Source of the DNA: Dictyostelium discoideum
Taxonomy: Eukaryota
Length of the DNA: 64,000 nucleotides
Assembly: GCA_000004695.1 (NCBI GenBank)
Contig: CM000151.3
Coordinates: forward strand, 3,584,001-3,648,000
Reading direction: 5' to 3'
The notes under the pieces were generated by a model. It was given only the letters and a program-made list of their open reading frames with translations, was not told where the DNA came from and did not search any database. Every line of letters starts with the position of its first letter. Position 1 is the first letter of the stretch. Shown here piece by piece: positions 10,047-45,900 of the stretch. A program made the translations under genes and the position numbers.

Positions 10047-10050
<4 letters not shown>
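5328..10050 (+). CDS. Large protein with N-terminal WD40/beta-propeller-like region, Thr/Ser/Pro-rich mucin-like middle and C-terminal RING-H2 finger (Vps8/HOPS-CORVET-like architecture; assignment tentative). Two exons: 5328..6951 and 7064..10050.
   Basis: ORFs 5328..7022 and 7186..10050 are joined in frame by a 112-nt intron (donor caag|GTAATTTTT at 6952, acceptor aaaaaag| at 7063). The reading frame is open from 7064. The N-terminal region has WD-like strands (YLALGANTGSLYFFERKS; LIWSHCGGYLFSGDDLGNLYCC). The C-terminus is CPICTLSLAENPESSFLGSTPATIIVFPNCGHSYHHCCIEDQGCMLCFSKR* (C-x2-C...C-x-H-x2-H-x-C...C-x2-C). Poly-Q tracts present. Confidence 0.65.
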
Positions 10051-10102
<52 letters not shown>

Positions 10103-10232: not shown

Positions 10233-12266
10233 TTACTTTTTTAAAAATGATAGTGCTTTTTTGATAAAATTATAATTATTACTTTTTGTTGGGGGTTGAA
10301 TGTCTACAGTTACCATCTGGCCATCTTTTTCTTCATCATAGCTTGATTTTAAATTTAATAAAAAATACTGCATACTTTGGCCCATTGCCATTTCGAAACT
10401 TGAAAATTTTGAGGAGATGGATTGTGGAATTGTTATATTATTATTATTATCATTATCATTAATATTATTAATATCTAGAATGTGAATTAAGTATAAAAGT
10501 GATTTTGAATAATCACAATAAATTGAACAAATAAATTTAGCTAATAAAGTTTTATCAATGATAAAACAAAGTTTTTTAATTTTTTTAATTGTTTTAAAAT
10601 TCTCTGATTTTAAATTACAAAATATTAAATCAGTTAGTGTTTTGCTATTACAAATTTCAATTAAAATTTCTTTTCTATTAAGAAAATTTTTTAAAAATCT
10701 TTGATTGATTTTATTTCTATTAATTTCATCAATTTTTGATTCAATTTCATATGATTTTAAAATGAATTTTCTTCTTCTTTCAGAGTTGAAAGGTAATTTG
10801 ATGCTTTGAATTTTTTCGTGTAGTGATAATGTTTCTTCAAAAGTTAACAATGGTAAAACTAAATTAAAAACAAAATCATAACCTTCACTTTCATTTGATG
10901 GTAATGAAAAATCAATTAAATCTAAATATCGATTTAAAACAATTTCAGAAAGGTTTGAAATTACATAAGATACCATGTTTTCATAATTTAATTCTATTAT
11001 AGTTAATAATTTTTCAAAGTTGAATCCAAATTTAACCAGATATAATTTGAATAAATTTAAATCTCTATTCATTATTTTACATTTATAAAAAAGTACTGAT
11101 AAAAACTCTGGTTTTAATAATAATTTATCATATTCTGAAAGATTGTTTGGATCATCATCATTTATACAATTTGAAGCGAATGAAATATTTTCAAACATTC
11201 TTTCATCACTGGCATAGAAGCCATTATTTAACATCTTGTCAATTGCATAATTTCTAAACTCTATTGAGGCTATTGTAAGTCTCTTTTTTTGTTCTTTTTT
11301 GAAATAGTTATTTGAAGAGTATACTCGTTCTATTAAAATTTTATAAAATGGTAATAATTTATCATTTCCTCTAAATGAATTAATACTAATTTTTAATTGC
11401 TCTAATATTTTAATTGAAATTTGAATATCCAATATTGTAACTATATCATCTGGATGGTGATCTGTTGGATTGGTTTGTTTTTTATCATATTTAAAAAGAG
11501 AAAGTAGCGATTTTAACATTTTTAAATCTTCATTTCTTATTGCATCTTCAATAAATCTTGTAAAGGAATTTAAACGTGAAAAATATTGATTTGACCTTTT
11601 TATTCTCTTTAGATATTCGTATTTTAAATCTTCATTTTTCCCATTTGAATAATACAATGAAAATATAGTATATAGATTATTTAAATCTTTTAAAGCATCA
11701 CTATTTAAATCTTTACAATTATCAATAAAATAATTTAATAATCTTATTGAATGAACCCCTCTATATACAAAGGCAACGATATTATCAAATTTAATTAATT
11801 TTCTAAATGTTTTTTTTTCTAAAAAGTGTATGAATTTATCATCACATATTTCAAAACCACTGGGGTTAATATATAATGTTATTTCATTCCGATTTTTAAT
11901 TTCATTTTCAAATATTCTTAAATAAAGATCAAATGATTCTAAATCCAATTCTTTCCATCCTAATAAAAGTAATATTTGCCCTTCATCAAATCTAATAAAA
12001 TATTTATGTACATTTGATTGATTTTCTTTGGTGAATCCATTCTCTTTTATTTCATTTTTAAGTTTTAAAAAATCTTTTAATTTTTCTACAAATAATTGTT
12101 GATTTTTTTTTTTTATTATTAATTCTAAAGGTAAATCATAATAATTATATCTGATATATTTTAATTTCTTATTATATTCTTTAACTTTATTAAATATTTC
12201 TCTATTAATATATTGATTTCTAAAAATTTTAAAAAATAAATCATCATTATTTGAAACCATTTTCAC
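10233..12266 (-). CDS. Hypothetical K/N/L-rich protein (677 aa ORF), no recognisable domain.
   Basis: Long uninterrupted minus-strand ORF in a >80% AT context (a random ORF of this length is very unlikely). Flanked by a poly-A/T terminator-like region (10050-10230) and an AT-rich upstream region (12267-12400). Confidence 0.5.
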   Translation of the reverse strand: MKMVSNNDDLFFKIFRNQYINREIFNKVKEYNKKLKYIRYNYYDLPLELIIKKKNQQLFVEKLKDFLKLKNEIKENGFTKENQSNVHKYFIRFDEGQILLLLGWKELDLESFDLYLRIFENEIKNRNEITLYINPSGFEICDDKFIHFLEKKTFRKLIKFDNIVAFVYRGVHSIRLLNYFIDNCKDLNSDALKDLNNLYTIFSLYYSNGKNEDLKYEYLKRIKRSNQYFSRLNSFTRFIEDAIRNEDLKMLKSLLSLFKYDKKQTNPTDHHPDDIVTILDIQISIKILEQLKISINSFRGNDKLLPFYKILIERVYSSNNYFKKEQKKRLTIASIEFRNYAIDKMLNNGFYASDERMFENISFASNCINDDDPNNLSEYDKLLLKPEFLSVLFYKCKIMNRDLNLFKLYLVKFGFNFEKLLTIIELNYENMVSYVISNLSEIVLNRYLDLIDFSLPSNESEGYDFVFNLVLPLLTFEETLSLHEKIQSIKLPFNSERRRKFILKSYEIESKIDEINRNKINQRFLKNFLNRKEILIEICNSKTLTDLIFCNLKSENFKTIKKIKKLCFIIDKTLLAKFICSIYCDYSKSLLYLIHILDINNINDNDNNNNITIPQSISSKFSSFEMAMGQSMQYFLLNLKSSYDEEKDGQMVTVDIQPPTKSNNYNFIKKALSFLKK

Positions 12267-12844
12267 TTTATTGAAACATTAAAAAATAATAAAAAAAAAA
12301 AAAAATTAAAAAAAAATCAAAAAAAAAAAAAAAAAAAATCTAATTTCAAAATAAATATCTAAAAAACAAATATACCAGTATTAAATATATTTTTTTTAAT
12401 TTTTTTATATTAATTAAATTGATTTTTTAAACAATAATGAAAAATATATATTTCATTAACCTTTTTTAATTTTATTTTTTTAAGTTTTTTAATTTCTAGT
12501 TTTTAATTTATAAATGATATCATCTTCTTTTCAAAATGCCATAGTAATAAAATTATTTTCAAAAATGAAAATATTAATTATTTTTTTTTTTTTTTTAAAA
12601 TTTCATTTTCATTTCATTTTCCTCCACATCACTAAACATATAATAGAATTTAAATAATGTTTTACAATAAAATAATAATAGTATTATATTTTATTTTTAA
12701 AAAAAAAAATGAAAATCCAAATAAAACCACCAATTTCAACAATCATGATTTTTTAAAAATATCTTTTTTTTATTTTTAGTTGACTGCACAAAAAAAAAAA
12801 AAAATAAATATCTGACAATTAATTTAATTCATTTCAATTTTAAT

Positions 12845-12946
12845 TTTTTCAATAATAATCACTCTTTTGATTTTTTTTAATGCCAAAGATATTTTAAAAT
12901 AAAAAAAAAATTAAAAAAAAATCAAAAGAGTGATTATTATTGAAAA
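12845..12946. repeat. Perfect 33-bp inverted repeat (hairpin/cruciform-capable) with ~33-nt spacer, ~80 bp upstream of the ATG of tgr-like copy A.
   Basis: 12845-12879 ttttcaataataatcactcttttgatttttttt is the exact reverse complement of 12913-12946 aaaaaaaatcaaaagagtgattattattgaaaa. The spacer contains ccaaagatattttaaaat. Confidence 0.8.
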
Positions 12947-13026
12947 CATTAAAATTGACATGACGAAAAAAAAAAAAAAAATAATGCATATTGTTTTTAT
13001 TATTGTTATTATCAGTCAAATAGAAA

Positions 13027-17879
<4,853 letters not shown>

Positions 17880-17962
17880 TCAGCTTAATAAATTGTAGTT
17901 ACTTTTTTTATAAGAAAGTGGAAAGATGATAAATTTGTTAAAATGTTTAATAGAAAATTAAA
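17880..17962 (+). other. Relic of an alternative (copy-B-type) cytoplasmic-tail coding segment lying 3' of copy A's stop codon.
   Basis: 17917-17960 ataagaaagtggaaagatgataaatttgttaaaatgtttaatagaaaattaaaaaaactc reads IRKWKDDKFVKMFNRKLKKL. This matches copy B's tail ..IIKKWKDDKFVKTFNRKLKKLS* (22161-22230, minus). The preceding TGATCAGCTTAATAAAT matches the post-stop sequence of copies C/D/E. Confidence 0.7.
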
Positions 17963-18317
17963 AAAACTCTATTTAAATTTCCCCCCTTTTTTTTTTTTAT
18001 TGTGCGGATTGGCCAAACCAAACACTTTTTAATATTTTTTTTTAAATTTTTCAAATCAAACACTTTTTTTTTTTATTTTTTTTTTTTATTTGTTTTTTTT
18101 TTTTATTATTTTTTTTTTTTTTATTATTTTTTCTTTTTTCACCTTTTGGTATTGATTTTTTTTTTTTTCAGACCAGAAGTTTAGGTTTTGGCGATAAAAT
18201 CCAATGAACAGTTTTTTGTTTTTAATTAGAGAAAAAAAAAAAAAAAAAAAAAAAAAAAATTAGTACAAATATTTATATTCAATCTAAAATAATAAAATAT
18301 AATACCTCTAGAAGAAA

Positions 18318-18600
18318 ATGAGCATTCATTCTTTTAGGTTTCATTATATTATTGCTATTATTACTATTATTACTACTATATTGCTATTGCTATCACTATT
18401 GTTACTATTATTACTACTATATTGCTATTGCTATTACTATTATTACTATTATTACTACTATATTGCTCTTGCTATTACTGTTATTACTATTATATTATTA
18501 CTATTACCATTACTACTATATAGCTATTGCTATAACTATTGATATTAATATTTCTATTTCTATTACTATTATATGTATAATTAATTATATTATTATTTTG
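18318..18600. repeat. Imperfect minisatellite built on (CTATTA/CTATTG)n units (ctattattactactatattgctattgctat...).
   Basis: Visible degenerate tandem hexamer/30-mer periodicity; it generates the spurious poly-L/Y/I ORFs 18318..18642. Confidence 0.6.
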
Positions 18601-19340
18601 GTTTTATTAATTATGTTTTTTAAATTGTTTTTATTATTATAAACTAAAAGTGGTTTTTTTATTTAAAATAAAAAATGATCATTTGATTTTAACCAAAAAT
18701 ATAGATGTGATGGTTTAATATTATAATGGCCATAGTTTTTATAAATGAACAATTGTATTTCATTTTATTTATAGTTGGTTAAAATAATGAGTGAATTTTT
18801 TTTTTTTTAACTGTAAAACATTACCCTTTTTTTGAAATAAAAAGAAAATTAAAAAAAAAAAATCAAATTATATTAAATTAAAAACAGTTGGAGATATTTT
18901 CCCCCACTTTTTTTAAAATTAAAAAAAGAAAATAAAAATAAAATAAAAAAAAAATCTTTGATCAAAAATATATTAACTCGGTTGCAATGAAATATTTTAA
19001 GTATTTAAATAGATTTTTTTTTTTTTAACTTTAATTATTTTATTCACTCATATTTTATTTATCTATTATTTTTTTTTTTTCATATTTATTTTATTTATTT
19101 ATTATTTATTTATTATTTATTAATATCATTTTCGTTTATATATTTAAACATACCTCAATTTTATAATGGACTCAACCAAACTATATTGTAATCACAAACT
19201 CAATAGCAATTGCACCAGCCAAAAAAGAAGGGGTTCTACACCATGCCAACCATGCCCAGGATATCCTAAAAAATTAAAAATTTGTTAGAGTTGTTCCTTT
19301 CATCCAAAGGTAATTTGTTTATAAAATAAACAATAAAACT

Positions 19341-19412
<72 letters not shown>

Positions 19413-20190
19413 TAAAATAAATAAATTTTTTTTTATTTTCAAAGAAATTTTAGTATAAAACATTTTTATTGTGTAGTTTTAAATTTTTAAAATTAAAAAC
19501 AAATAAATATTCATAATGATTAACTTGGAAAGTTTTTTAATATTTTATAGTGAGTTTAAACCCTTTTTTTATTTTTTTTATTTTTTTTTTTTTTTTTTTT
19601 GTTTGACTTGGGTGAATTTTTTTAGTGTACACCGTTTAGAAAGCGAAATTTCAAAAAAAATTCCCTTCAACAATTAATTTGCTAAAAACGCACAATATTA
19701 ATTTTTTTTTTTTTTTTATAAAAACTCTATTAATTATTTCCCCCTTTATTATTATTTTTTATTTACAAATGAAAAATGAAACTTTAATTACATTTATGTA
19801 AAAATAATAAAGAGTTTACTTTCACTATTTGATTTAAAGATAAAATAAATTACTATTACTCTTTTCAAGTTTTAATTGGCGAAAAATTAAATTTTGATCC
19901 AAGATTTATCAAAATTTTTCTCACACATTCCGATTATAAAAGTTTTAAGTATGTTGAGTCCAATGAAAAATTTCCAGAAATAGCTCCTCAAAGTGTTTAC
20001 CCAAGTAAGTAAAAATTTTTTAAATTTTTAAAATATAAATAACCTTGTTCTAATTAAAATAAAAGTTTTAGATTTACCCTCACTTTTTCAAAGCATTCAA
20101 AAAAAAGAACATATAACTCAAGATTTAGTTAAACCCTGTTCGAGTATGTATTCATTTTTTTTTTTTTTTTTTTTTTTTTTTGGTGAAAAA

Positions 20191-21231
20191 TAAAAAATTT
20201 CCCAACCTTTTTTTATGTATCATTAAATGATATAATGAAAGAATGTATTTTCATATCAATGGATTTCAATGGTGGAGGTGATGCTTTAGTTGCTGAAGAT
20301 TTAAATCATTCAGATGAAATTGTATTATGTAAAAGGTTATTCAAGATCAGTTTTAGGTCTTTCTTTTTCTAATTCAAAATTAAATAAATTAAATGGAAAT
20401 GAAAATAAATTATTTAATTTAAATGATACGTTACTGAATATTGTAAAAAATAGAACTGATCAAACCAAACCATTAGCAATTTTCATTCATATTGATGAAT
20501 TTCAAATGGCACACCAATATGCAAAAGGATTTGGTAGTCAATATGATAATTTCGTTAAAAAAATGATATAGGCATTAGGAACATTCAAATGTACAGGTAA
20601 TAAAATTAATAAATCAAACGCACACAATAACAATATTTTCATCATACCATTTTTAACTGGAACCAATTCCGATTCATTAGAGATCGTTTTATCAAAATGG
20701 GAGATAGAGAATATAAATATTAAACCATTATCATATGAGTCATCAAAATTAAAAATTAAAAATAATGTTAAATATTTTCCACAATTAGATAATAATTTTT
20801 TTAAAATAATGGTTATCGATCTTGGTATTGTTCCAAGATACTTGGAATATTTGATATCTGATTTAGATGATCATTTTAATTCAATAAAACAAAGAGAACA
20901 TTTTAATAGTTACGGTTCAGATGCATTGATAGATATAGAAAATGAATCGGTTTCAATTCAAATGGTATCCAAATTTGGATTTTCACTCAAAAAACGTATT
21001 CAAAGAATGAGAATTGGTGGCTTCAATGATGAAACTTTGGAAACATTATTATGTTATTGTATATGTGGTAAATCAATCCAAGAATTATCATATGGCGGTC
21101 ACATCATCACACAAAATAGTAAAGGTAATGGTAATTTTAAAATCATCCTTCCTGTTATTGACTTAAACACTATGGCAACCAAATTAAATTTATTCGAATT
21201 TCAAACTATCACACAATTTCCATTATCTTAA
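20191..21231 (+). pseudogene. Fragmented ORF of unknown function. ~345 codons are open in one frame apart from a single in-frame TAG (20569-20571), and there is a frame switch near 20300.
   Basis: ORFs 20314..20571 and 20809..21231 share a frame and the 237 nt between them is also open (ALGTFKCTGNKINKSN...KIMVIDLGIV...). They are separated only by TAG. Upstream, ..DFNGGGDALVAEDLNHSDEIVLCKR is in a different frame. This could be a pseudogene, an unannotated intron arrangement or a sequencing error. Confidence 0.25.
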
Positions 21232-21769
21232 AAATTAATTGGTTTCAAATTCGAGTACATTACTGCTGTTATTTTAATGCTCAAAATAAACTGTACCCAT
21301 AATGTTAAAAAAATCATGGACCACTCACTTTGATTTTTGGTAACCATATAGAAAAAGAGTTTGGCAATCAAAAAGTTTTAAACAGTGTTGTCAGATTTAA
21401 AAAAATGAAATTGGTTTATGAAATTGAAAAGTGGATTATGTTAGTAAATATTTTTTAAAAAAAAAAAAAAAAAATTTTTTTTAATAATTAATTGCAATCA
21501 ACACCAAATTTACCACCTCTGGGAAGTATTTAAGTGAGGCTGATGTTAAAGTATTCATTCAACATATAGATAATTAAAATTAAGTTTCCCAAGTTTTATT
21601 ATTATACCAATTATAATTTCAAATTAAAAAGTTAGAGAATCTCAATTTCCAGCATACAAAGAAATTTTAATTTACCACCAACTTAACATCAATTCTTTTT
21701 TTTAAATACTATTTTGCATAGAGTAGATACAAAAAAATTAAATGAAATAATCTTGTAGTCTTAATTAAA

Positions 21770-21960
21770 TATCATGGTGAATCAACCTTTACACAAACAT
21801 CAATACCTACTATAATTTATCCAAATACAATGTTAATTAATGATGTCAAACCAACTGAAAAACCATTCATTATCAAAGTACAAGAAAATTCAAAATTCTT
21901 TTCAAATGAATTATCTGTTGTGTTGTTATTGTATCAGTTTCTTTCTTATTTTTTAAAAAA
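21770..21960 (+). pseudogene. Truncated fragment of a tgr-like family gene, inverted relative to the neighbouring copy B.
   Basis: Translates to KYHGESTFTQTSIPTIIYPNTMLINDVKPTEKPFIIKVQENSKFFSNELSVV. This matches copy B's IKYYGESTFTQTSIPTISYPNAMLINDVKPTDKPFIIKVQEAFFSNEF but on the + strand with no flanking exons. Confidence 0.6.
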
Positions 21961-22160
21961 AGTAATTCAAAAAAACTCTAAGACAATTAAAACAATTTAA
22001 AAATAAATAAAATCCACTAGTTAAATATATTTTTTTTAAAAATTTTATTTAAATAATTCCATAGAAAAAATTAATTATTTAAAAATCTTTATTTAAACTA
22101 CTCCTTTTAAAAAGGAATAAACTTTTAAAAAATTAATACACAGTATTTTTTATTTGTTAA

Positions 22161-24407
22161 TTATGATAGTTTTTTTAATTTTCTATTAAATGTTTTTACA
22201 AATTTATCGTCTTTCCACTTTTTTATAATAAAATAAGAAGCTGCAACAACAACGACAGCAGCAAAAGCAACGGAACCAATAATAATACCAGCGAGTTGAG
22301 AACTTGTTAGTTTTGATTTATTTGATGTACAAATTGAATTATTATCATTATTTGATACTGGTTTACTATCTACTAATACTGAAAAGTCTGGATCAATAAT
22401 TATTGATTGTTTATAATTTGGTATTGTAATACCAATGAATGATTGTGATATTGATGATGTTTGAATTGAGTTCATTTTTGAATCTAATAATTGATTTTCA
22501 ATTGAAGATACTTTTGAATCGATGATTGCTCTTTTAATGAATCTACCATAAAGTGAATGATCATCAATTTGAATTTTAAAGAAGTTTGAATTATCACCAT
22601 CGCTTGTATCTCCAAATACTTTTAATGAACAAGTATCTTTGGAAGTTGATGATTCGAATAATGCTGACATTACAAGTTGAAGACTATTTAATTGATTTAA
22701 AAATTTATATTCTGTAATTTCAATTGTATATTTAATACTTGATGGATTCATTGTTATATTATTATTTGCAAATTGAATGATTGTTGTTTGATTGAACCAT
22801 TCTAAAGTTACAGTAATATTGGTTGTTAATGTATTTGTTGATTTTGTATCACCACTTTGAATACTTGTAAAGTATTGACTTTTAATATTATTAATTGGTG
22901 TATAAATCCATTTATCAAATGTATATAAATTAACTTAATTTGAATTAAAATCTAATTCTCTTAATGATACAATTGAAATCAATGATTTGAATAAATAATT
23001 TGTACTATTTGATGTTTGATTATTGTTATCGATAATTGGTAATTCAGTTGATGGTTGTGATGTATTTGTTGATGGTTGTGGTATAATTATAACTTGTGAA
23101 TTACAATCATTACCAATCCAAGGTGGATAACAAACACATCCACTTGATGAACAATATCCTTGTTTTGATCCACCACATAATGGTTCACCTAAACATGTTT
23201 GAGGTTTATTCGTTGGTATTGGTGATGATGTAGGTGTTGACGATGACGAGTCTATTGAAGAAGATGATGATGATGGATTTGGTGTTGGGGATTCTGTTGG
23301 TAATTCTGTTGGAATTGGTGGTACAAAACGAATATCAAATACTAATGGATAAACAGTGAATTCATTTGAAAAGAAAGCTTCTTGTACTTTGATAATGAAT
23401 GGTTTATCAGTTGGTTTGACATCATTGATTAACATTGCATTTGGATAACTTATAGTTGGTATTGATGTTTGTGTAAATGTTGATTCACCATAATATTTAA
23501 TTAATACTACAAGATTTGAAGAAAAGAAACCAGCACCTATTATCCATAATTCGCCACCACTTGTTGTAATTTGAGAAACTCTATAGATATCTAACCTTTT
23601 AGCAAGTCCTGATGATACTGCTTTCATTGAAAACTTATACGGGAATAGAATTCTTAGTGAGTCGCTTGAATAACCACCATAACAACCACCATTATTAATT
23701 AATCCATAAACACTGAATGTAATTTCTGAAGTGTACAATACACCTCTTGGTAAGTAAACGTAACATTGATAGGTTGCAGAGGTGATATTCTTTGATTTAA
23801 TAATTGTTTCACATTCAAATATTTGAAATTCAATTGCTTCAACGTAAACCATTGGATATTGAAGATCTTTTAATCCACTTTCGTAATCAGTTGCTTCAAA
23901 TGAGAAATATACTTCCATATGTCCATCTGCAGGAATAGCTACTTGTGGTGTAAATAATGTTAAAATTGGTGGTGAACTATCGATACCATCATTTTCACCA
24001 CTACACTTTTTATATAATTTATTTATTGTTGAGTCTAATAAATAATTTATAAATGGGTTATTAACACCACCACCTACAAATGATTCAGATACTGAAAAGT
24101 AGCAACCAATACCTTGAGTATCATATAATTTAACTTGTGTGATAATATAATTTTGAGATGCACATTTACTTGGTAAAGTTATATTAATTTGATAATCACC
24201 ATTAAATTTATCACCTCTTGTTAAATTTTGAGTTGTTAAATGGAATTTATAAGTTGAACTATCCATTTCACCTCTAACTATAATATCAGCATAATCAAAA
24301 CCATTAATTGGATCATCTATTGTAAATTTCCAACCAAATTCATTTGTTGAATTAACCTTTTCAATATTACTAAATATTGGTCCATATCCATCGAAATCTG
24401 TAGATTC

Positions 24408-28958: not shown

Positions 28959-29045
28959 TATTATAAAAAGAGAATTTTAGGATTATTAACTAATTTTTTT
29001 TTTTTATTAAAAAGTTGGGACGAAATCAATTATTTATTAAGCCGA

Positions 29046-32000
29046 TCAGTTCATTTTTTGTAATTTGTTTTGTACTTTTCTTTGGAACAAAACCGATTTT
29101 TTGTTTTTCACAACCAAGTAAACAACTGATACAATAACTACAGTGGCAAAAGCAACGGAACCAATAATAATACCAGCGAGTTGAGCACTTGTTAGTTTTG
29201 ATTTATTTGATGTACAAATTGAATTATTATCATTATTTGATACTGGTTTACTATCTACTAATACTGAAAAGTCTGGATCAATAATTATTGATTGTTTATA
29301 GTTTGGTATTGTAATACCAATGAATGATTGTGATACTGATGATGTTTGAACTGAGTTCATTTTTGAATCTAATAATTGATTTTCAATTGAAGATACTTTT
29401 GAATCGATGATTGCTCTTTTAATGAATCTACCATAAAGTGAATGGTCATCAATTTGAATTTTAAAGAAGTTTGAATTATCACCATCGCTTGTATCTCCAA
29501 ATTCTTTTAATGAACAAGTATCTTTGGAAGTTGATGATTCGAATAATGCTGACATTACAAGTTGAAGACTATTTAATTGATTTAAAAATTTATATTCTGT
29601 AATTTCAATTGTATATTTAATACTTGATGGATTCATTGTTATATTATTATTTGCGAATTGAATGATTTTTGTTTGATTGAACCATTCTAAAGTTACAGTA
29701 ATATTAGTTATTAATGGATTTGTTGATTTTGTATCACCACTTTGGATACTTGTAAAGTATTGACTTTTAATATTATTAATTGGTGTATAAATCCATTTAT
29801 CAAATGTATATAAATTAACTTGATTCGAATTAAAATCTAATTCTCTTAATGATACAATTGAAATCAATGATTTGAATAAATAATTTGTACTATTTGATGT
29901 TTGATTATTGTTATCGATAATTGGTAATTCAGTTGATGGCTGTGATGTATTTGTTGATGGTTGTGGTATAATTATAACTTGTGAATTACAATCATTACCA
30001 ATCCAAGGTGGATAACAAATACATCCACTTGGCGAACAAAAACCTTGTTTTGATCCACCACATACTGGTTCACCTAAACATGTTTGTGGTTTATTCGTTG
30101 GTATTGGTGATGATGTAGGTATTGGTGTTTGTGTTGGTGTTGGATCTATAAAATTATAAACTATTGGATTGACAGTGAATTCATTTGATGTGAGTGGTAG
30201 GTCTGAAACTTTGATAATGAATGGTTTATCAGTTGGTTTAATATTTTTAATAAACATTGCACTCCAATAAACTGTAGTTGGTACTATTATTTGATTAAAG
30301 CTTGAGTCTCCTTCATATTTTACATATACTTGTTGCGTTGAATTGAAACATCTACCTGTTATCCATAACTCGCTATCAAATGAATTAAATTTACTGCATT
30401 TTGTGATTTGTATTACTTTATTAAAAGCTATATTATTAATTGTATATATAAAAGATAAATTATTTAGTGATTCGCTTGAATATCCGCTATAATAACCGCC
30501 ATTATTAATGAATCCATAAACACTGAAAATAATATCTGAATTGTATCCAAATCCTATTGGTAAATTGATGGTACATGTATAGGTTGCAGCTGTTTCGTTT
30601 ATTGAAATAATAGATGATACACATTCAAGTGTTTGTGCTTCTATTGTTTGAATGTAAACAATTGGATATTGTTTATCTTTTAAACCACTTTCAATATCTA
30701 CTGCTTCAAAGTTGAATAATAAATATTGAGTACCATCACTATTTTGTCTTAATATTGGTATGAATGAAGTTAAAATTGGTGGTGAACTATCGATACCATC
30801 ATTTTCACCACTACATGTTTTATATACTTTATTTATTGTTGGATCTGATAAATAATTTATAAATACATTTTTAATACCATCTATTCCATTAACTACTGAA
30901 AATTCACCTGAATAACCTTGAGTATCATATAATTTAACTTGTGTGATAATATAATTTTGAGATGCGCATTTACTTGGTAAAGTTATATTAATTTGATAAT
31001 CACCATTAAATTTATCACCTCTTGTTAAATTTTGAGTTGTTAAATGGAATTTATAAGTTGAACTATCCATTTCACCTCTCACTATAATATCACCATAATC
31101 AAAACCATTAATTGGATCATCTATTGTAAATTTCCAACCAAATTCATTTGTTGAATTAACCTTTTCAATATTACTAAATATTGGTCCATATTCATCGAAA
31201 TGTTTAGAAACAACTATTAGTTGTGATGATAAAGGAAACATATCATTTGTTATTGCTCGAAAACCACACCATAAAAAGAAACTGAGTGGACCAGGTCTAG
31301 TGTTTGCAAGAACTGTAAATTTAATTTGATATTTTGAAATTGTTGAATTCCAAGTTGCAAACTTTAAACTATTGAAATCTATATTAGAATCTGTGGTATT
31401 ACTATTTAAAATAAAAAGTGAGAATGAAGCTGAAGGATTACTATGGGTTTGAGTACCATTATAATTGAAATAAATTATATTATCAACTGATTTATTTGCC
31501 ACATCAATATAATTTTTTAAAAATGTAATATTTTCTATTAAAACAGGTAATATTGTTGGAGCTTTATAATCTATAACTGAAAATGGATTAATTGAAAAAT
31601 AACTATTTAAATAATAAACTTGACTCTTTTTAAAAGTTGAATCTCCAATAGATAAAAATTGAAAACCACGCCCTTTAAAATCATAAACAATTTCATATAT
31701 ATTATTTTCAGCATCTACCAATGATTCTTGTCTATATATTCCATTTGCATCATCATCATTAATTTGAATGAAAAGATTATAACCAATCTCTTTATATGTT
31801 GGTTTTATTTTAATTCTTAATAAATGAAATTGTTCAAAAAGGTATATAACTTTACATGATTCTAATTCTAATGGTAGTAATGATGAATTTATTGCTATAT
31901 TTAAAAATATTTTTTAATGTTAGTAATTGTTTTGAGTGTGTGTGTGTTGTTCGGTAGTAGTTTAGAATATTAATGATTTTATATGTGTATATACTTACTA

Positions 32001-33770: not shown

Positions 33771-34472
33771 AAATAAAAAACAAAAAAAAAATTTTGAAAT
33801 TCTAAGGGGCAAACAGAAAAAAAAAAAAAAAAAAAGACACAAAATTTCTTTTCGCTTTTATTACCAAACAAATTGGTGTCGTTTTGTTAAAAAAAAAAAA
33901 AAAAAAACAAAATATTGATGATTGTTTTTTATATATATTTTATAAGGCGGTTGTAAAAATTTTTGCATTAAAGTGTTCCTCTTTTTTTTTATTTTTTTTT
34001 TTTACTTTTATTTTTTTTATTTTCTGTGTAACTCCCCTTATTATTTTATCTTTTATTATTATTGTTATTTTTAAAAAAACAACATTCATCTAAATGATTG
34101 GTTCATTTTACTTGTTTTTTATTTTTTTTTTGGTTTTTTTTTTTCTTTTTACCAAATAATTGGTTTTTTGGTGTTGTTGATGAAATCAATTGCTTTTTCT
34201 TTCTACTAATCTTGATCCATTTTTTTGTTCTATCTCAAGCTAATTGATTATATAATTAATGGTGATTTTGTCTTTTTTTTTTTTTTTTAAAGATTAATTT
34301 AAAAAATAATAAAAAAAAAAAAATTAAAATTTTTTTTATATATACTTTTTTTTTCGAATTAAAAGTCCTGTTTTTATTTGTTTTTATCTTTTATTTTTTA
34401 TTTTTTATTTTTATTTTTTTTCCAAGATTTATAATTTAAATATTAGAATTAAATTAACTGATTAAGTAATTA

Positions 34473-37400
34473 TCAGTTAATTGTTTGTAATTTCTTTTGT
34501 ACTTTTCTTTGGAATTTTTTTGATTTTCTGTTTTTCACAACCAAGTAAACAACTGATACAATAACTACAGTGGCAAAAGCAATAGAACCAATAATAATAC
34601 CAGCGAGTTGAGCACTTGTTAGTTTTGATTTATTTGATGTACAAATTGAATTATTATCATTATTTGATACTGGTTTACTATCTACTAATACTGAAAAGTC
34701 TGGATCAATAATTATTGATTGTTTATAGTTTGGTATTGTAATACCAATGAATGATTGTGATACTGATGATGTTTGAATTGAGTTCATTTTTGAATCTAAT
34801 AATTGATTTTCAATTGAAGACACTTTTGAATCGATGATTGCTCTTTTAATGAATCTACCATAAAGTGAATGATCATCAATTTGAATTTTAAAGAAGTTTG
34901 AATTATCACCATCGCTTGTATCTCCAAATACTTTTAATGAACAAGTATCTTTGGAAGTTGATGATTCGAATAATGCTGACATTACAAGTTGAAGACTATT
35001 TAATTGTTTTAAAAATTTATATTCTGTAATTTCAATTGTATATTTAATACTTGATGGATTCATTGTTATATTATTATTTGCGAATTGAATAATTGTCGTT
35101 TGATTGAACCATTCTAAAGTTACAGTAATATTGGTTGTTAATGTATTTGTTGATTTTGTATCACCACTTTGAATACTTGTAAAGTATTGACTTTTAATAT
35201 TATTAATTGGTGTATAAATCCATTTATCAAATGTATATAAATTAACTTGATTTGAATTAAAATCTAATTCTCTTAATGATACAATTGAAATCAATGATTT
35301 GAATAAATAATTTGTACTATTTGATGTTTGATTATTGTTATCGATAATTGGTAATTCAGTTGATGGTTGTGATGTATTTGTTGATGGTTGTGGTATAATT
35401 ATAACTTGTGAATTACAATCATTACCAATCCAAGGTGGATAACAAATACATCCACTTGATGAACAAAAACCTTGTTTTGATCCACCACATACTGGTTCAC
35501 CTAAACATGTTTGTGGTTTATTCGTTGGCATTGGTGATGATGTAGGTATTGGTGTTTGTGTTGGTGTTGGATCTATAAAATTATAAACTATTGGATTGAC
35601 AGTGAATTCATTTGATGTGAGTGGTAGGTCTGAAACTTTGATAATGAATGGTTTATCGGTTGGTTTAATATTTTTAATAAAAATTGCACTCCAATAAACT
35701 GTAGTTGGTACTATTTGATTAAAGCTTGAGTCTCCTTCATATTTTACATATACTTGTTGCGTTGAATTGAAACATCTACCTGTTATCCATAACTCGCTAT
35801 CAAATGAATTAAATTTACTGCATTTTGTGATTTGTATTACTTTATTAAAAGTTATATTATTAATTGTATATATAAAAGATAAATTATTTAGTGATTCGCT
35901 TGAATATCCGCTATAATAACCGCCATTATTAATGAATCCATAAACACTGAAAATAATATCTGAATTGTATCCAAATCCTATTGGTAAATCGATAGTACAT
36001 GTATAGGTTGCAGCTGTTTCGTTTATTGAAATAATAGATGATACACATTCAAGTGTTTGTACTTCTATTGTTTCAATATAAACAACTGGATATTGTTTAT
36101 CTTTTAAACCACTTTCAATATCTACTGCTTCAAAGTTGAATGATAAGTATTGAGTACCATCACTATTTTGTTTTAATATTGGTATGAATGAAGTTAAAAT
36201 TGGTGGTGAACTATCGATACCATCATTTTCACCACTACATGTTTTATATACTTTATTTATTGTTGGATCTGATAAATAATTTATAAATACATTTTTAATA
36301 CCATCCATTTCACCAACTACATAAAATTCACCTGAAAAGCCTTGAGTATCATATAATTTAACTTGTGTGATAATATAATTTTGAGATGCACATTTACTTG
36401 GTAAAGTTATATTAATTTGATAATCACCATTAAATTTATCACCTCTTGTTAAATTTTGAGTTGTTAAATGGAATTTATAAGTTGAACTATCCATTTCACC
36501 TCTCACTATAATATCACCATAATCAAAACCATTAATTGGATCATCTATTGTAAATTTCCAACCAAATTCATTTGGTGAATTAATTTTTTCAATATTACTA
36601 AATATTGGTCCATACGCATCGAAATGTTTAGAAACAATAAATAGTTGTGATGATAAAGGAAACATATCATTTGTTATTGAAGATTGATAACCACACATTA
36701 AAAAGAAACTGAGTGGACCAGGTCTAGTGTTTGCAAGAACTGTAAATTTAATTTGATATTTTGAAATTGTTGAATTCCAAGTTGCAAACTTTAAACTATC
36801 GAAAACTATATTAGATTCTGTGGTATTACTATTTAAAATAAAAAGTGAGAATGAAGCTGAAGGATCACTATGGGCTTGAGTACCATTATAATTGAAATAA
36901 ATTATATTATCAACTGATTTATTTGCCACATCAATATAATTTTTTAAAAATGTAATATTTTCTATTAAAACAGGTAATATTGTTGGAGCTTTATAATCTA
37001 TAACTGAAAATGGATTAATTGAAAAATAACTATTTACATAATAAACTTGACTCTTTTTAAAAGTTGAATCTCCAATAGATAAAACTGAAAATCCACGCCC
37101 TTTAAAATCATAAACAATTTCATATATATTATTTTCAGCATCTACCAATGATTCTTGTCTATATATTGCATTTGCATCATCATTAATTTGAATGAAAAGA
37201 TTATAACCAATCTCTTTATATGTTGGTTTTATTTTAATTATTAATAAATGAAATTGTTCAAAAAGGTATATAACTTTACATGATTCTAATTCTAATGGTA
37301 GTAATGATGAATTTATCGCTATTTTTAAAAATATTTTTTAATGTTAGTACTTGTTTGTGTGTGGGGTGTGTGTGTGTGTTATTCAGTAGTAGTTTAGAAT

Positions 37401-42440: not shown

Positions 42441-42925
42441 AACAAAATAAAATAAAATAAAATAAAATAAATAAATTTCAATTGGAAGATTTTTTATTTC
42501 CAGTCTGTTAAACATGTTGAACTGTTAAAACTATTAAACCTGATAAACCTACCAAACGATCCTGTGCCAAAGATTGGAGAGAATATAAATCTATCTATAC
42601 ACTATGACATTAGGAATGGTTTAATATTTATTAACACTTCAACAACAATAAAAATAAAAAAATTTAAACATCATCATTTTTAAATATTGGAAAAATTTTA
42701 ATAATTTCAAATAAATAATAAATGTGTGGGTAAACCTAATTAATTTGTTTTTAATTTTTTTTTTGTTGAACCACTACAGTAGAAATTTTTTTTTTTACAT
42801 ATACATAAGAAAAGACAAATAAATAATAAGTAAATGCATAAAGAAATTTTTAAAAATTAATAAAAAAAATAATAATTTTTATTTTCCAAGATTTTTAATT
42901 AGAATATTTGAATTAAATTAACTGA

Positions 42926-45900
42926 TCAGTTCATTTTTTGTAATTTGTTTTGTACTTTTCTTTGGAATAAATCTGATTTTCTGTTTTTCACGACCAAGTA
43001 AACAACTGATACAATAACTACAGTGGCAAAAGCAACGGAACCAATAATAATACCAGCGAGTTGAGCACTTGTTAGTTTTGATTTATTTGATGTACAAATT
43101 GAATTATTATCATTATTTGATACTGGTTTACTATCTACTAATACTGAAAAGTCTGGATCAATAATTATTGATTGTTTATAATTTGGTATTGTAATACCAA
43201 TGAATGATTGTGATACTGATGATGTTTGAATTGAGTTCATTTTTGAATCTAATAATTGATTTTCAATTGAAGATACTTTTGAATCGATGATTGCTCTTTT
43301 AATGAATCTACCATAAAGTGAATGGTCATCAATTTGAATTTTAAAGAAGTTTGAATTATCACCATCACTTGTATCTCCAAATTCTTTTAATGAACAAGTA
43401 TCTTTGGAATTTGATGATTCGAATAATGCTGACATTACAAGTTGAAGACTATTTAATTGATTTAAAAATTTATATTCTGTAATTTCAATTGTATATTTAA
43501 TACTTGATGGATTCATTGTTATATTATTATTTGCAAATTGAATGATTGTCGTTTGATTGAACCATTCTAAAGTTACAGTAATATTAGTTGTTAATGTATT
43601 TGTTGATTTTGTATCACCACTTTGAATACTTGTAAAGTATTGACTTTTAATATTATTAATTGGTGTATAAATCCATTTATCAAATGTATATAAATTAACT
43701 TGATTTGAATTAAAATCTAATTCTCTTAATGATACAATTGAAATCAATGATTTGAATAAATAATTTGTACTATTTGATGTTTGATTATTGTTTTCTATAA
43801 TTGGTAATTCAGTTGATGGTTGTGATGTATTTGTTGATGGTTGTGGTATAATTATAACTTGTGAATTACAATCATTACCAATCCAAGGTGGATAACAAAT
43901 ACATCCACTTGATGAACAAAAACCTTGTTTTGATCCACCACATACTGGTTCACCTAAACATGTTTGTGGTTTATTCGTTGGTATTGGTGATGATGTAGGT
44001 ATTGGTGTTTGTGTTGGTGTCTCTGTTGGTGTTTCTGTTGGTGTTTCTGTTGGTGTTTCTGTTGGTGTTAAGGGAATCGTAAAATTATAAACTATAGGAA
44101 TAACAGTGAATTCATTTGATGTGAGTGGATAGTCCGAAACTTTGATAATGAATGGTTTATCAGTTGGTTTAATATTTTTAATAAACATTGCACTCCAATA
44201 AACTTTATTTGGTACTATTATTTGATTAAATCCAGGTTCTCCAAAATATTTTACATATACTTGTTGTTTTGTTGAATTGAAACCTCTACCTGTTATCCAT
44301 AACTCGCTATCACCAGATACAAATTTGCTACAGGTATTAATTTGTATTACTTTGTTTATGGATATATCGCTCATTGAATATATAAAAGATAAACTATTTA
44401 GTGATTCGCTTGAATATCCGCTATAATAACCGCCATTATTAATGAATCCATAAACACTGAAAATAATATCTGAATTGTATCCGAATCCATTTGGTAAATT
44501 GATAGTGCATTTATAGGTTGAAGTTGTTTCATTTATTGAAATAATAGATGATACACATTCAAGTGTTCTTAAATCTGTTGTTTGGATATAAACAATTGGA
44601 TATTGTTTATCTTTTAAACCACTTTCAATATCTACTGCTTCAAAGTTGAATGATAAGTATTGAGTACCATCACTATTTTGTTTTAATATTGGTATGAATG
44701 AAGTTAAAATTGGTGGTGAACTATCGATACCATCATTTTCACCACTACATGTTTTATATACTTTATTTATTGTTGGATCTGATAAATAATTTATAAATAC
44801 ATTTCTAATACCATTAAATCCACTGGATACTGAAAATTCACCTAAATAACCTTGAGTATCATATAATTTAACTTGTGTGATAATATAATTTTGAGATGCA
44901 CATTTACTTGGTAAAGTTATATTAATTTGATAATCACCATTAAATTTATCACCTCTTGTTAAATTTTGAGTTGTTAAATGGAATTTATAAGTTGAACTAT
45001 CCATTTCACCTCTAACTATAATATCAGCATAATCAAAACCATTAATTGGATCATCTATTGTAAATTTCCAACCAAATTCATTTGTTGAATTAACTTTTTC
45101 AATATTACTAAATATTGGTCCATATTCATCGAAATGTTTAGATTCAATAATTAATTGAGAAGATAAAGGTAAGAAATCACTTATTAATGAACTTGAATAA
45201 CCACAAAGTAAAGCAAAACCAAGTGGACCAGGTCTAGTATTTGCAGGAACTGTAAATTTAATTTGATATTTTGAAATTGTTGAATTCCAAATTGAAGTTG
45301 TAATATTATCATAATCTACGACTCCAGTTACTTTAAACTCATGAGATAAAATTAAAAATGAGAAATTAATTGTATCATCTTTAGGTTCTTGAGTACCATT
45401 ATAATTGAAATAAATTATATTATCAACTGATTTATTTGTTACATCAATGTTATTTATTAAATAAGTTACATTACCAATTAAAACTGAAATCATATCAGAA
45501 TATTTAAAATCAAGTTTTAAAAGTGGATCAATTGAATAATATTGAAATGGATTATAAAATTGAGATTGTCTTGAATAAGAATCACCAATATTTAAACTAT
45601 TTAATATACCTTCATGAAAATTTAAAACAGTTTCATATATATTGTTTTCGATATCAGGCATTGAGTCATATCTTAATACTTGATTAACATTATCATTAAT
45701 TTTAATAAAAGTACTGTACCCTTTACTTTGATAAATTGGTTTTATTTTAATCTTAAATAAATAAACTTGATTATATAAATGAGTAGAATTAAATGATTCT
45801 AATTCTAATATTGGTAATGTATTTATATCCACAACTATTATTTATAATAAAATTATTTTAATTAATATAATAATTTTATTAAATAATAATAAAAAATAAA

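Follow-up and report, generated by a model that had tools for sequence, protein, structure and literature searches.

A perfect 33-bp palindrome upstream of a ComC-family gene of Dictyostelium discoideum is best explained by template switching

The long palindrome found upstream of a ComC-family gene in Dictyostelium discoideum AX4 very probably arose in the AX4 lineage through one template-switch (fold-back) inverted duplication, and most likely has no selected function. This reading is based on an adjacent reverse-complement copy, on the absence of that copy from related strains as polarised by an outgroup, and on a 12-nt seed repeat that was already present at the inner end of the stem.

Results

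The window, i.e. the whole 64-kb stretch of DNA that was analysed, belongs to chromosome 2 of D. discoideum AX4. It has about 22% G+C, short A+T-rich introns and (AAT)n tracts. DDB_G0272903 and a ComC-family gene, here called copy A, point away from each other across a 760-bp intergenic/promoter region, and the palindrome lies in this region. The minus-strand ORF at 10233-12260 is 100% identical to AX4 DDB_G0272903, which has a twin, DDB_G0273953, within the AX4 chromosome-2 duplication. On the plus strand, the first exon of copy A is an ORF at 13027-13422, and its ATG (13027) is located 64 bp downstream of the end of the right arm. Copy A encodes a 1408-aa ComC-family protein with ComC_SSD, DUF7034, DUF7035 and DUF7949 domains, as assigned on the gene call of a second assembly, GCA_054883475.1 (L001).

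Four ComC-family paralogues of copy A lie further along the window. The 3' parts of these five genes are 94-97% identical over about 1.1 kb (16765-17893 versus 22170-23275, 29032-30141, 34472-35568 and 42911-44020), and their 5' exons and promoters are barely alignable, a distribution that suggests gene conversion or recent duplication limited to the C-terminal region. The next paralogue faces copy A tail to tail, so that the pair makes up a 1.1-kb inverted repeat around 17894-22169.

An exact 33/33 palindromic pair had been reported in the first-pass annotation of this DNA, and a direct script check of the sequence bore it out: the left arm, 12846-12878 (TTTTCAATAATAATCACTCTTTTGATTTTTTTT), and the right arm, 12914-12946, are exact reverse complements. 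Of the earlier coordinates, the end (12946) was correct and the start (12845) was one base early, the true position being 12846; the spacer, put at about 33 nt, measures 35 nt (12879-12913, AATGCCAAAGATATTTTAAAATAAAAAAAAAATTA). The flanks GACTGCACAAAA and AATTGACATGACG are as described there, and the loop does contain the GATA-like motif that had been noticed, in the form CCAAAGATATTTTAAAAT. Pairing continues outward as far as 12829/12963, giving 50-nt arms (12829-12878 and 12914-12963) that fail to pair at two positions, 12833/12959 and 12845/12947, on either side of an 11-bp block.

The repeat stands apart from everything else of its kind in the window. In an exhaustive scan with loops of 3-100 nt, 33 nt was the longest perfect inverted repeat; all others of at least 17 nt were A/T homopolymer pairs, and the next non-homopolymer repeat reached only 16 nt, which indicates that the palindrome exceeds chance. 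In 40 order-2 Markov simulations per 1-kb block, which preserve local trinucleotide statistics, no arm exceeded 22 nt, or 18 nt when homopolymers were set aside. Scan and simulations thus agree with the earlier remark that such a stem is unexpected by chance: the 33-bp inverted repeat is genuine, lies beyond chance and is no effect of composition.

The AX4 region folds strongly. As single-stranded DNA its predicted energy is -41.7 kcal/mol (z = -9.2 versus shuffles), and as RNA, on either strand, about -52 kcal/mol (z about -12.5, or -12.6) over 141 nt, i.e. -0.37 kcal/mol/nt. If transcribed, the region would give an RNA carrying a 50-bp A/U-rich hairpin. This raises the question of a young hairpin-RNA gene, transcribed alone or within the 5' leader of the ComC-family mRNA and diced by DrnB, in other words a miRNA-like locus born by template switching. 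The energy of its ~50-bp stem is below the -0.2 kcal/mol/nt used as a criterion for D. discoideum miRNA precursors (PMC6161686), the palindrome is intergenic like most miRNA loci of this species (PMC6161686), and the creation of miRNA hairpins by template switching has already been proposed (PMC8794818). However, the predicted hairpin has a stem made up almost entirely of A and U, including A8/U8 runs, and Rfam returned no family at E <= 1 for the region. The arm sequence was found in no paper in a full-text literature search and occurs 0 times in the supplementary text of PMC6161686. A hairpin-RNA gene is therefore considered improbable. Were it true, the palindrome would be a newborn, lineage-specific amoebozoan miRNA-like locus whose pre-hairpin ancestor is still visible in sister strains.

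Orthologous loci were fetched from five other assemblies (L001-L005), using DDB_G0272903 as the anchor. The anchor gene is 96-97% identical to that of AX4 in L002 and L004 (both labelled D. discoideum) and 93-94% identical in L003 and L005 (both labelled D. cf. discoideum). Gene-level DNA identities give the tree ((AX4,L001),(L002,L004)),(L003,L005), on which L003 serves as the outgroup. Over 22 kb, 5 SNPs and 3 homopolymer indels separate L001 from the window; being of the same lineage as AX4, L001 counts only as an independent check of the assembly. L005 yielded no promoter match, its neighbourhood being rearranged and the locus uninformative. Informative sequences outside the AX4 lineage are thus three only (L002, L004 and L003), with L002 and L004 representing one lineage. 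Promoters were compared by default blastn and by MAFFT alignments, of which the L003 alignment is rough around the arm; permissive blastn (word size 7, no dust) gave low-complexity noise.

Other differences among these loci were also observed. Compared with L001, AX4 has 29 additional nt in an A/T run near 10077 (A-run 10048-10101), and there are differences of 7 and 3 nt in two further runs; these are due either to genuine instability of microsatellites or to homopolymer errors in long reads. Near the anchor gene, the D. cf. discoideum loci have transposon-related genes that are absent from AX4 at the corresponding positions: L003 has a faint DDE_1 match at 18334-19084, and L005 a full RVT/RNaseH/integrase LTR-retroelement ORF at 20532-22010.

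In L001 the palindrome is base for base the same as in AX4. Inverted duplications can arise as artefacts in libraries, and a fold-back chimera of sequencing or assembly would produce arms of this kind; the repeat is, however, identical in the AX4 reference and in the independently made assembly GCA_054883475.1, and the two arm mismatches fit ancestral states (see below), which an artefact would not yield. This explanation is thus close to negligible.

The two promoter alignments reveal what the site looked like in the relatives. L002, L004 and L003 all keep a diverged left arm, the loop, the downstream A-run and the ATG-proximal sequence; what each of them is missing is a stretch of 32-38 nt that in AX4 forms the outer part of the right arm. 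In L002 and L004 the sequence runs ...CACTTTTTTGATTTTTTTT ATTATTGACAAAGATATTTT A(n) TTAAAAAAAAATCAA C A(n)..., in which the inverted repeat is 12 nt only, TTGATTTTTTTT / AAAAAAAATCAA, the innermost part of the AX4 stem. These halves lie in AX4 at 12867-12878 and 12914-12925, respectively; both are found in L002 and L004, unaccompanied there by the rest of the right arm, and the right one, too, is ancestral. The intervening 35-nt spacer is likewise ancestral, collinear with the relatives and uninverted. The fold of the L002 region is insignificant (z = +1.2), with a short seed stem only. What AX4 has in addition is a lineage-specific insertion of 38 nt, AAGAGTGATTATTATTGAAAACATTAAAATTGACATGA (12926-12963), whose boundaries are ambiguous by 1-2 nt and to which a G at 12965 may also belong. 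Of its 38 positions, 36 agree with the reverse complement of 12829-12866.

This arrangement bears directly on the earlier suggestion of a tiny MITE-like insertion, in which the arms would be the terminal inverted repeats of a non-autonomous DNA transposon of about 100-135 bp that landed in the promoter. Inverted arms around an AT-rich interior, a size typical of MITEs and a location in intergenic DNA would suit such an element, and small repetitive elements such as thug-S exist in D. discoideum (mentioned in PMC6161686). However, no empty site was found: in the relatives the left arm and the internal segment are in place, and 38 nt of the right arm are all that is missing. Target-site duplications, for which the first-pass annotation had proposed looking at 12845/12946, are absent at either candidate pair of ends (12845/12947 or 12828/12964), and the sequences just outside the 33-mers are inverted complements of each other. 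Nor is there a second copy: the arms recur neither in the 64 kb of AX4 (allowing up to 6 mismatches) nor in the ~108 kb of related loci (L002-L005), and 27 nt of the arm gave 0 exact matches in JGI metagenome contigs. An insertion of this type is thus regarded as refuted by the orthologous loci and is extremely unlikely. A flanking 31-nt direct repeat (12781-12811 versus 12961-12991) was considered as a target-site duplication and rejected, as its A-runs pre-exist in the relatives; the TGAC shared at its right is the end of the copied arm.

The direction of copying can be read from the two arm mismatches when both AX4 arms are aligned with the left arms of L002, L004 and L003. At both positions the AX4 right arm has G. 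For the first (TCATGTCA), G is also found in the left arms of L002, L004 and L003; for the second (AATGTTTT), it is found in the left arm of the outgroup L003. Because the right arm retains the ancestral left-arm G at both mismatches, it is a reverse-complement copy of the ancestral left arm; the 50-nt left arm (12829-12878) is the older promoter DNA from which the copy was made. The alignment also indicates that the AX4 left arm changed from G to T twice (12833 and 12845) after the duplication. The two AX4 arms have in common AATAATAATCAC and CTC (…CAATAATAATCACTC…), states unseen in L002, L004 and L003, which have GC/GG-containing or shorter versions at these places. Since the arms share these AX4-lineage states, copying came after changes had accumulated in the AX4 lineage. 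The sequence comparison thus shows the pattern of presence and absence, the seed repeat, which arm was copied and in what order the events took place.

A different history would be an old functional palindrome, serving as a cruciform or as a dimeric-regulator site for the ComC-family gene, that was lost independently in L002/L004 and in L003. Long palindromes are prone to deletion, and this one lies 64-200 bp upstream of the ATG among conserved promoter blocks; its inner 33 bp are perfect and its outer part has the two mismatches, a contrast that could reflect selection or arm homogenisation. Such a history would require the right arm to be deleted twice, independently and with almost identical limits, which is much less parsimonious than one gain on the AX4 branch. 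Moreover, the AX4 arms differ from each other by 4%, whereas the left arms of AX4 and L003 are far more diverged, and the AX4-lineage states in both arms and the ancestral left-arm bases in the right arm are what a copy would carry. An ancient palindrome is accordingly held to have little probability. The right arm is absent outside the AX4 lineage, and conservation at the site extends only to the loop motif and to some of the left arm.

The loop motif, AAGATATTTTAAAA, is invariant in AX4, L002, L004 and L003 and older than the palindrome. On its minus strand, at 12887-12895, lies the 9-mer AAAATATCT, the reverse complement of the GATA-like AGATATTTT. A second, inverted copy of AAAATATCT occurs on the plus strand at 12756-12764, about 125 bp upstream of the loop copy, and is invariant in all four sequences. 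AAAATATCT is identical to the evening element of plants, to which SHAQKYF-type Myb factors bind. The window holds more copies of it than expected, with 14 matches versus 5.5 expected (1/100 shuffles reach 14), as is AAGATATTTT, with 9 versus 2.6 expected (0/100 shuffles reach 9). The other matches of AAAATATCT are at 619, 4254, 15615, 18892, 27198, 33187, 33733, 39080, 47653, 48440, 52660 and 52690. The matches are located in intergenic DNA rich in T, many of them have another AAATATCT 6-50 bp away, and several are 100-250 bp upstream of the starts of ComC-family paralogues. AAAATATCT is therefore a candidate for a shared promoter element.

The neighbourhood of the palindrome has also been rearranged in the AX4 lineage. 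In L002 (6233-8858), L004 (4453-7081) and L003 (7176-9732), a gene-bearing segment of about 2.6 kb lies between the ComC-family promoter and the orthologue of DDB_G0272903. In AX4, this segment lies on the other side of the ComC gene (19702-21750), where it is inverted, 91-96% identical and marked by internal deletions; the junction is at about 12545-12578, i.e. ~250-280 bp from the palindrome. The gene in the relocated AX4 segment looks truncated, because of these internal deletions. The extra gene of the L002 segment is called at 774 aa; a Pfam search with its 490-aa longest ORF found no family, and it is not recognisably transposon-derived.

Discussion

The template-switch model can be laid out step by step. 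The ancestral ComC-family promoter already held the 12-bp inverted repeat, TTGATTTTTTTT - 35 nt - AAAAAAAATCAA. A nascent 3' end that had just copied AAAAAAAATCAA may have paired with the TTGATTTTTTTT of its own strand or of the opposite template, and may then have been extended by 38 nt along the left arm before returning to its original template just ahead of the A16 run. The outcome would be the expansion of a 12-bp stem into a 50-bp stem around a loop that was not inverted, and the two later G to T substitutions in the left arm would leave the inner 33 bp perfect. As for the enzymology, we infer that a replication or repair polymerase switched template. At the return junction, AX4 reads ...CATGA/CG/A16 and L002 reads ...TCAA/C/A-run, with 1-2 nt (A, C) in common and no clear microhomology past A/CA; the extra G at 12965 is unaccounted for by the model.

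With the relocation junction so near, the 38-nt insertion could belong to a larger repair-associated event instead of a simple replication slip. In a weaker variant of the hairpin-RNA reading, one multi-switch replication-repair event would have left both footprints, the inverted copy of 38 nt and the inverted, relocated 2.6-kb segment close by.

Template switching at quasi-palindromes is well documented. It has been demonstrated as a mutagenic process in experiments with E. coli and yeast (PMC7202029, PMC3820800). In promoters of S. cerevisiae, expansions of inverted repeats by template switching are frequent; examples include an expansion from 12 to 48 bp upstream of SPT8 and one from 9 to 24 bp that alters GRE2 expression (PMC13100816). 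A single template switch can also generate a perfect hairpin tens of bases long (PMC8794818).

The palindrome is most likely without selected function, a neutral or nearly neutral mutational scar, a view drawn from its lineage specificity; for the same reason it is not a conserved regulatory element. The first-pass annotation had offered a cruciform or regulatory hairpin as one possibility. Folding energy makes such a structure physically possible, and the DNA could in principle extrude a cruciform, a process that the 35-nt spacer would disfavour; conservation lends the idea no support, the palindrome being present in one lineage only. The repeat is evidently tolerated, since it persisted long enough for two substitutions to occur. 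Incidental effects on the promoter may nevertheless have followed: the conserved upstream motifs would now lie 38 bp further from the ATG-proximal region, and sites in the left arm would be duplicated in inverted orientation.

The locus is of interest as a clean and datable example of how a long, perfect, hairpin-forming repeat grows from a 12-bp seed in one step. Its ancestral state survives in sister strains, and two diagnostic bases record the direction of copying. It suggests that inverted-repeat expansion by template switching, known from bacteria, yeast and primates, acts on promoters of the extremely A+T-rich Dictyostelium genome as well, and it shows that a palindrome with 50-bp arms can persist there. 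The alleles with and without the 38 nt form a natural pair for studying effects on the expression of the ComC-family gene. The case also serves as a warning that isolated inverted repeats should not be called MITEs without a check of the orthologous site.

Comparison with known systems places the palindrome as a fresh instance of a well-known kind of mutation, and it reveals no new kind of system. With MITEs and thug-S (PMC6161686) it shares size, inverted-repeat architecture and intergenic position, but it is single-copy in all DNA examined, has no target-site duplication, and at orthologous sites is represented by one arm and the loop. Like cruciform-forming palindromes, it has 50-bp A+T-rich arms that would in principle be extrudable under negative supercoiling; it departs from them, and from fragile sites, in its spacer, which disfavours extrusion, and in its persistence through two substitutions. 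As in the RNA hairpins attributed to template switching (PMC8794818), a reverse-complement copy gives a long perfect stem in which mismatches accumulate later, whereas, unlike the miRNA loci of that class, the palindrome matches no known RNA family (Rfam). Its host sets it apart from the yeast and E. coli cases, being an amoebozoan with a genome of ~78% A+T, as do the net insertion of 38 nt, the uninverted spacer and the fact that it is known from sequence comparison alone. The closest likeness is to the quasi-palindrome expansions of yeast promoters (PMC13100816), in which a short prior repeat was likewise extended in one step in a promoter setting, with one arm kept in relatives and the other new; the growth from 12 to 50 bp seen here stands beside that from 12 to 48 bp at SPT8.
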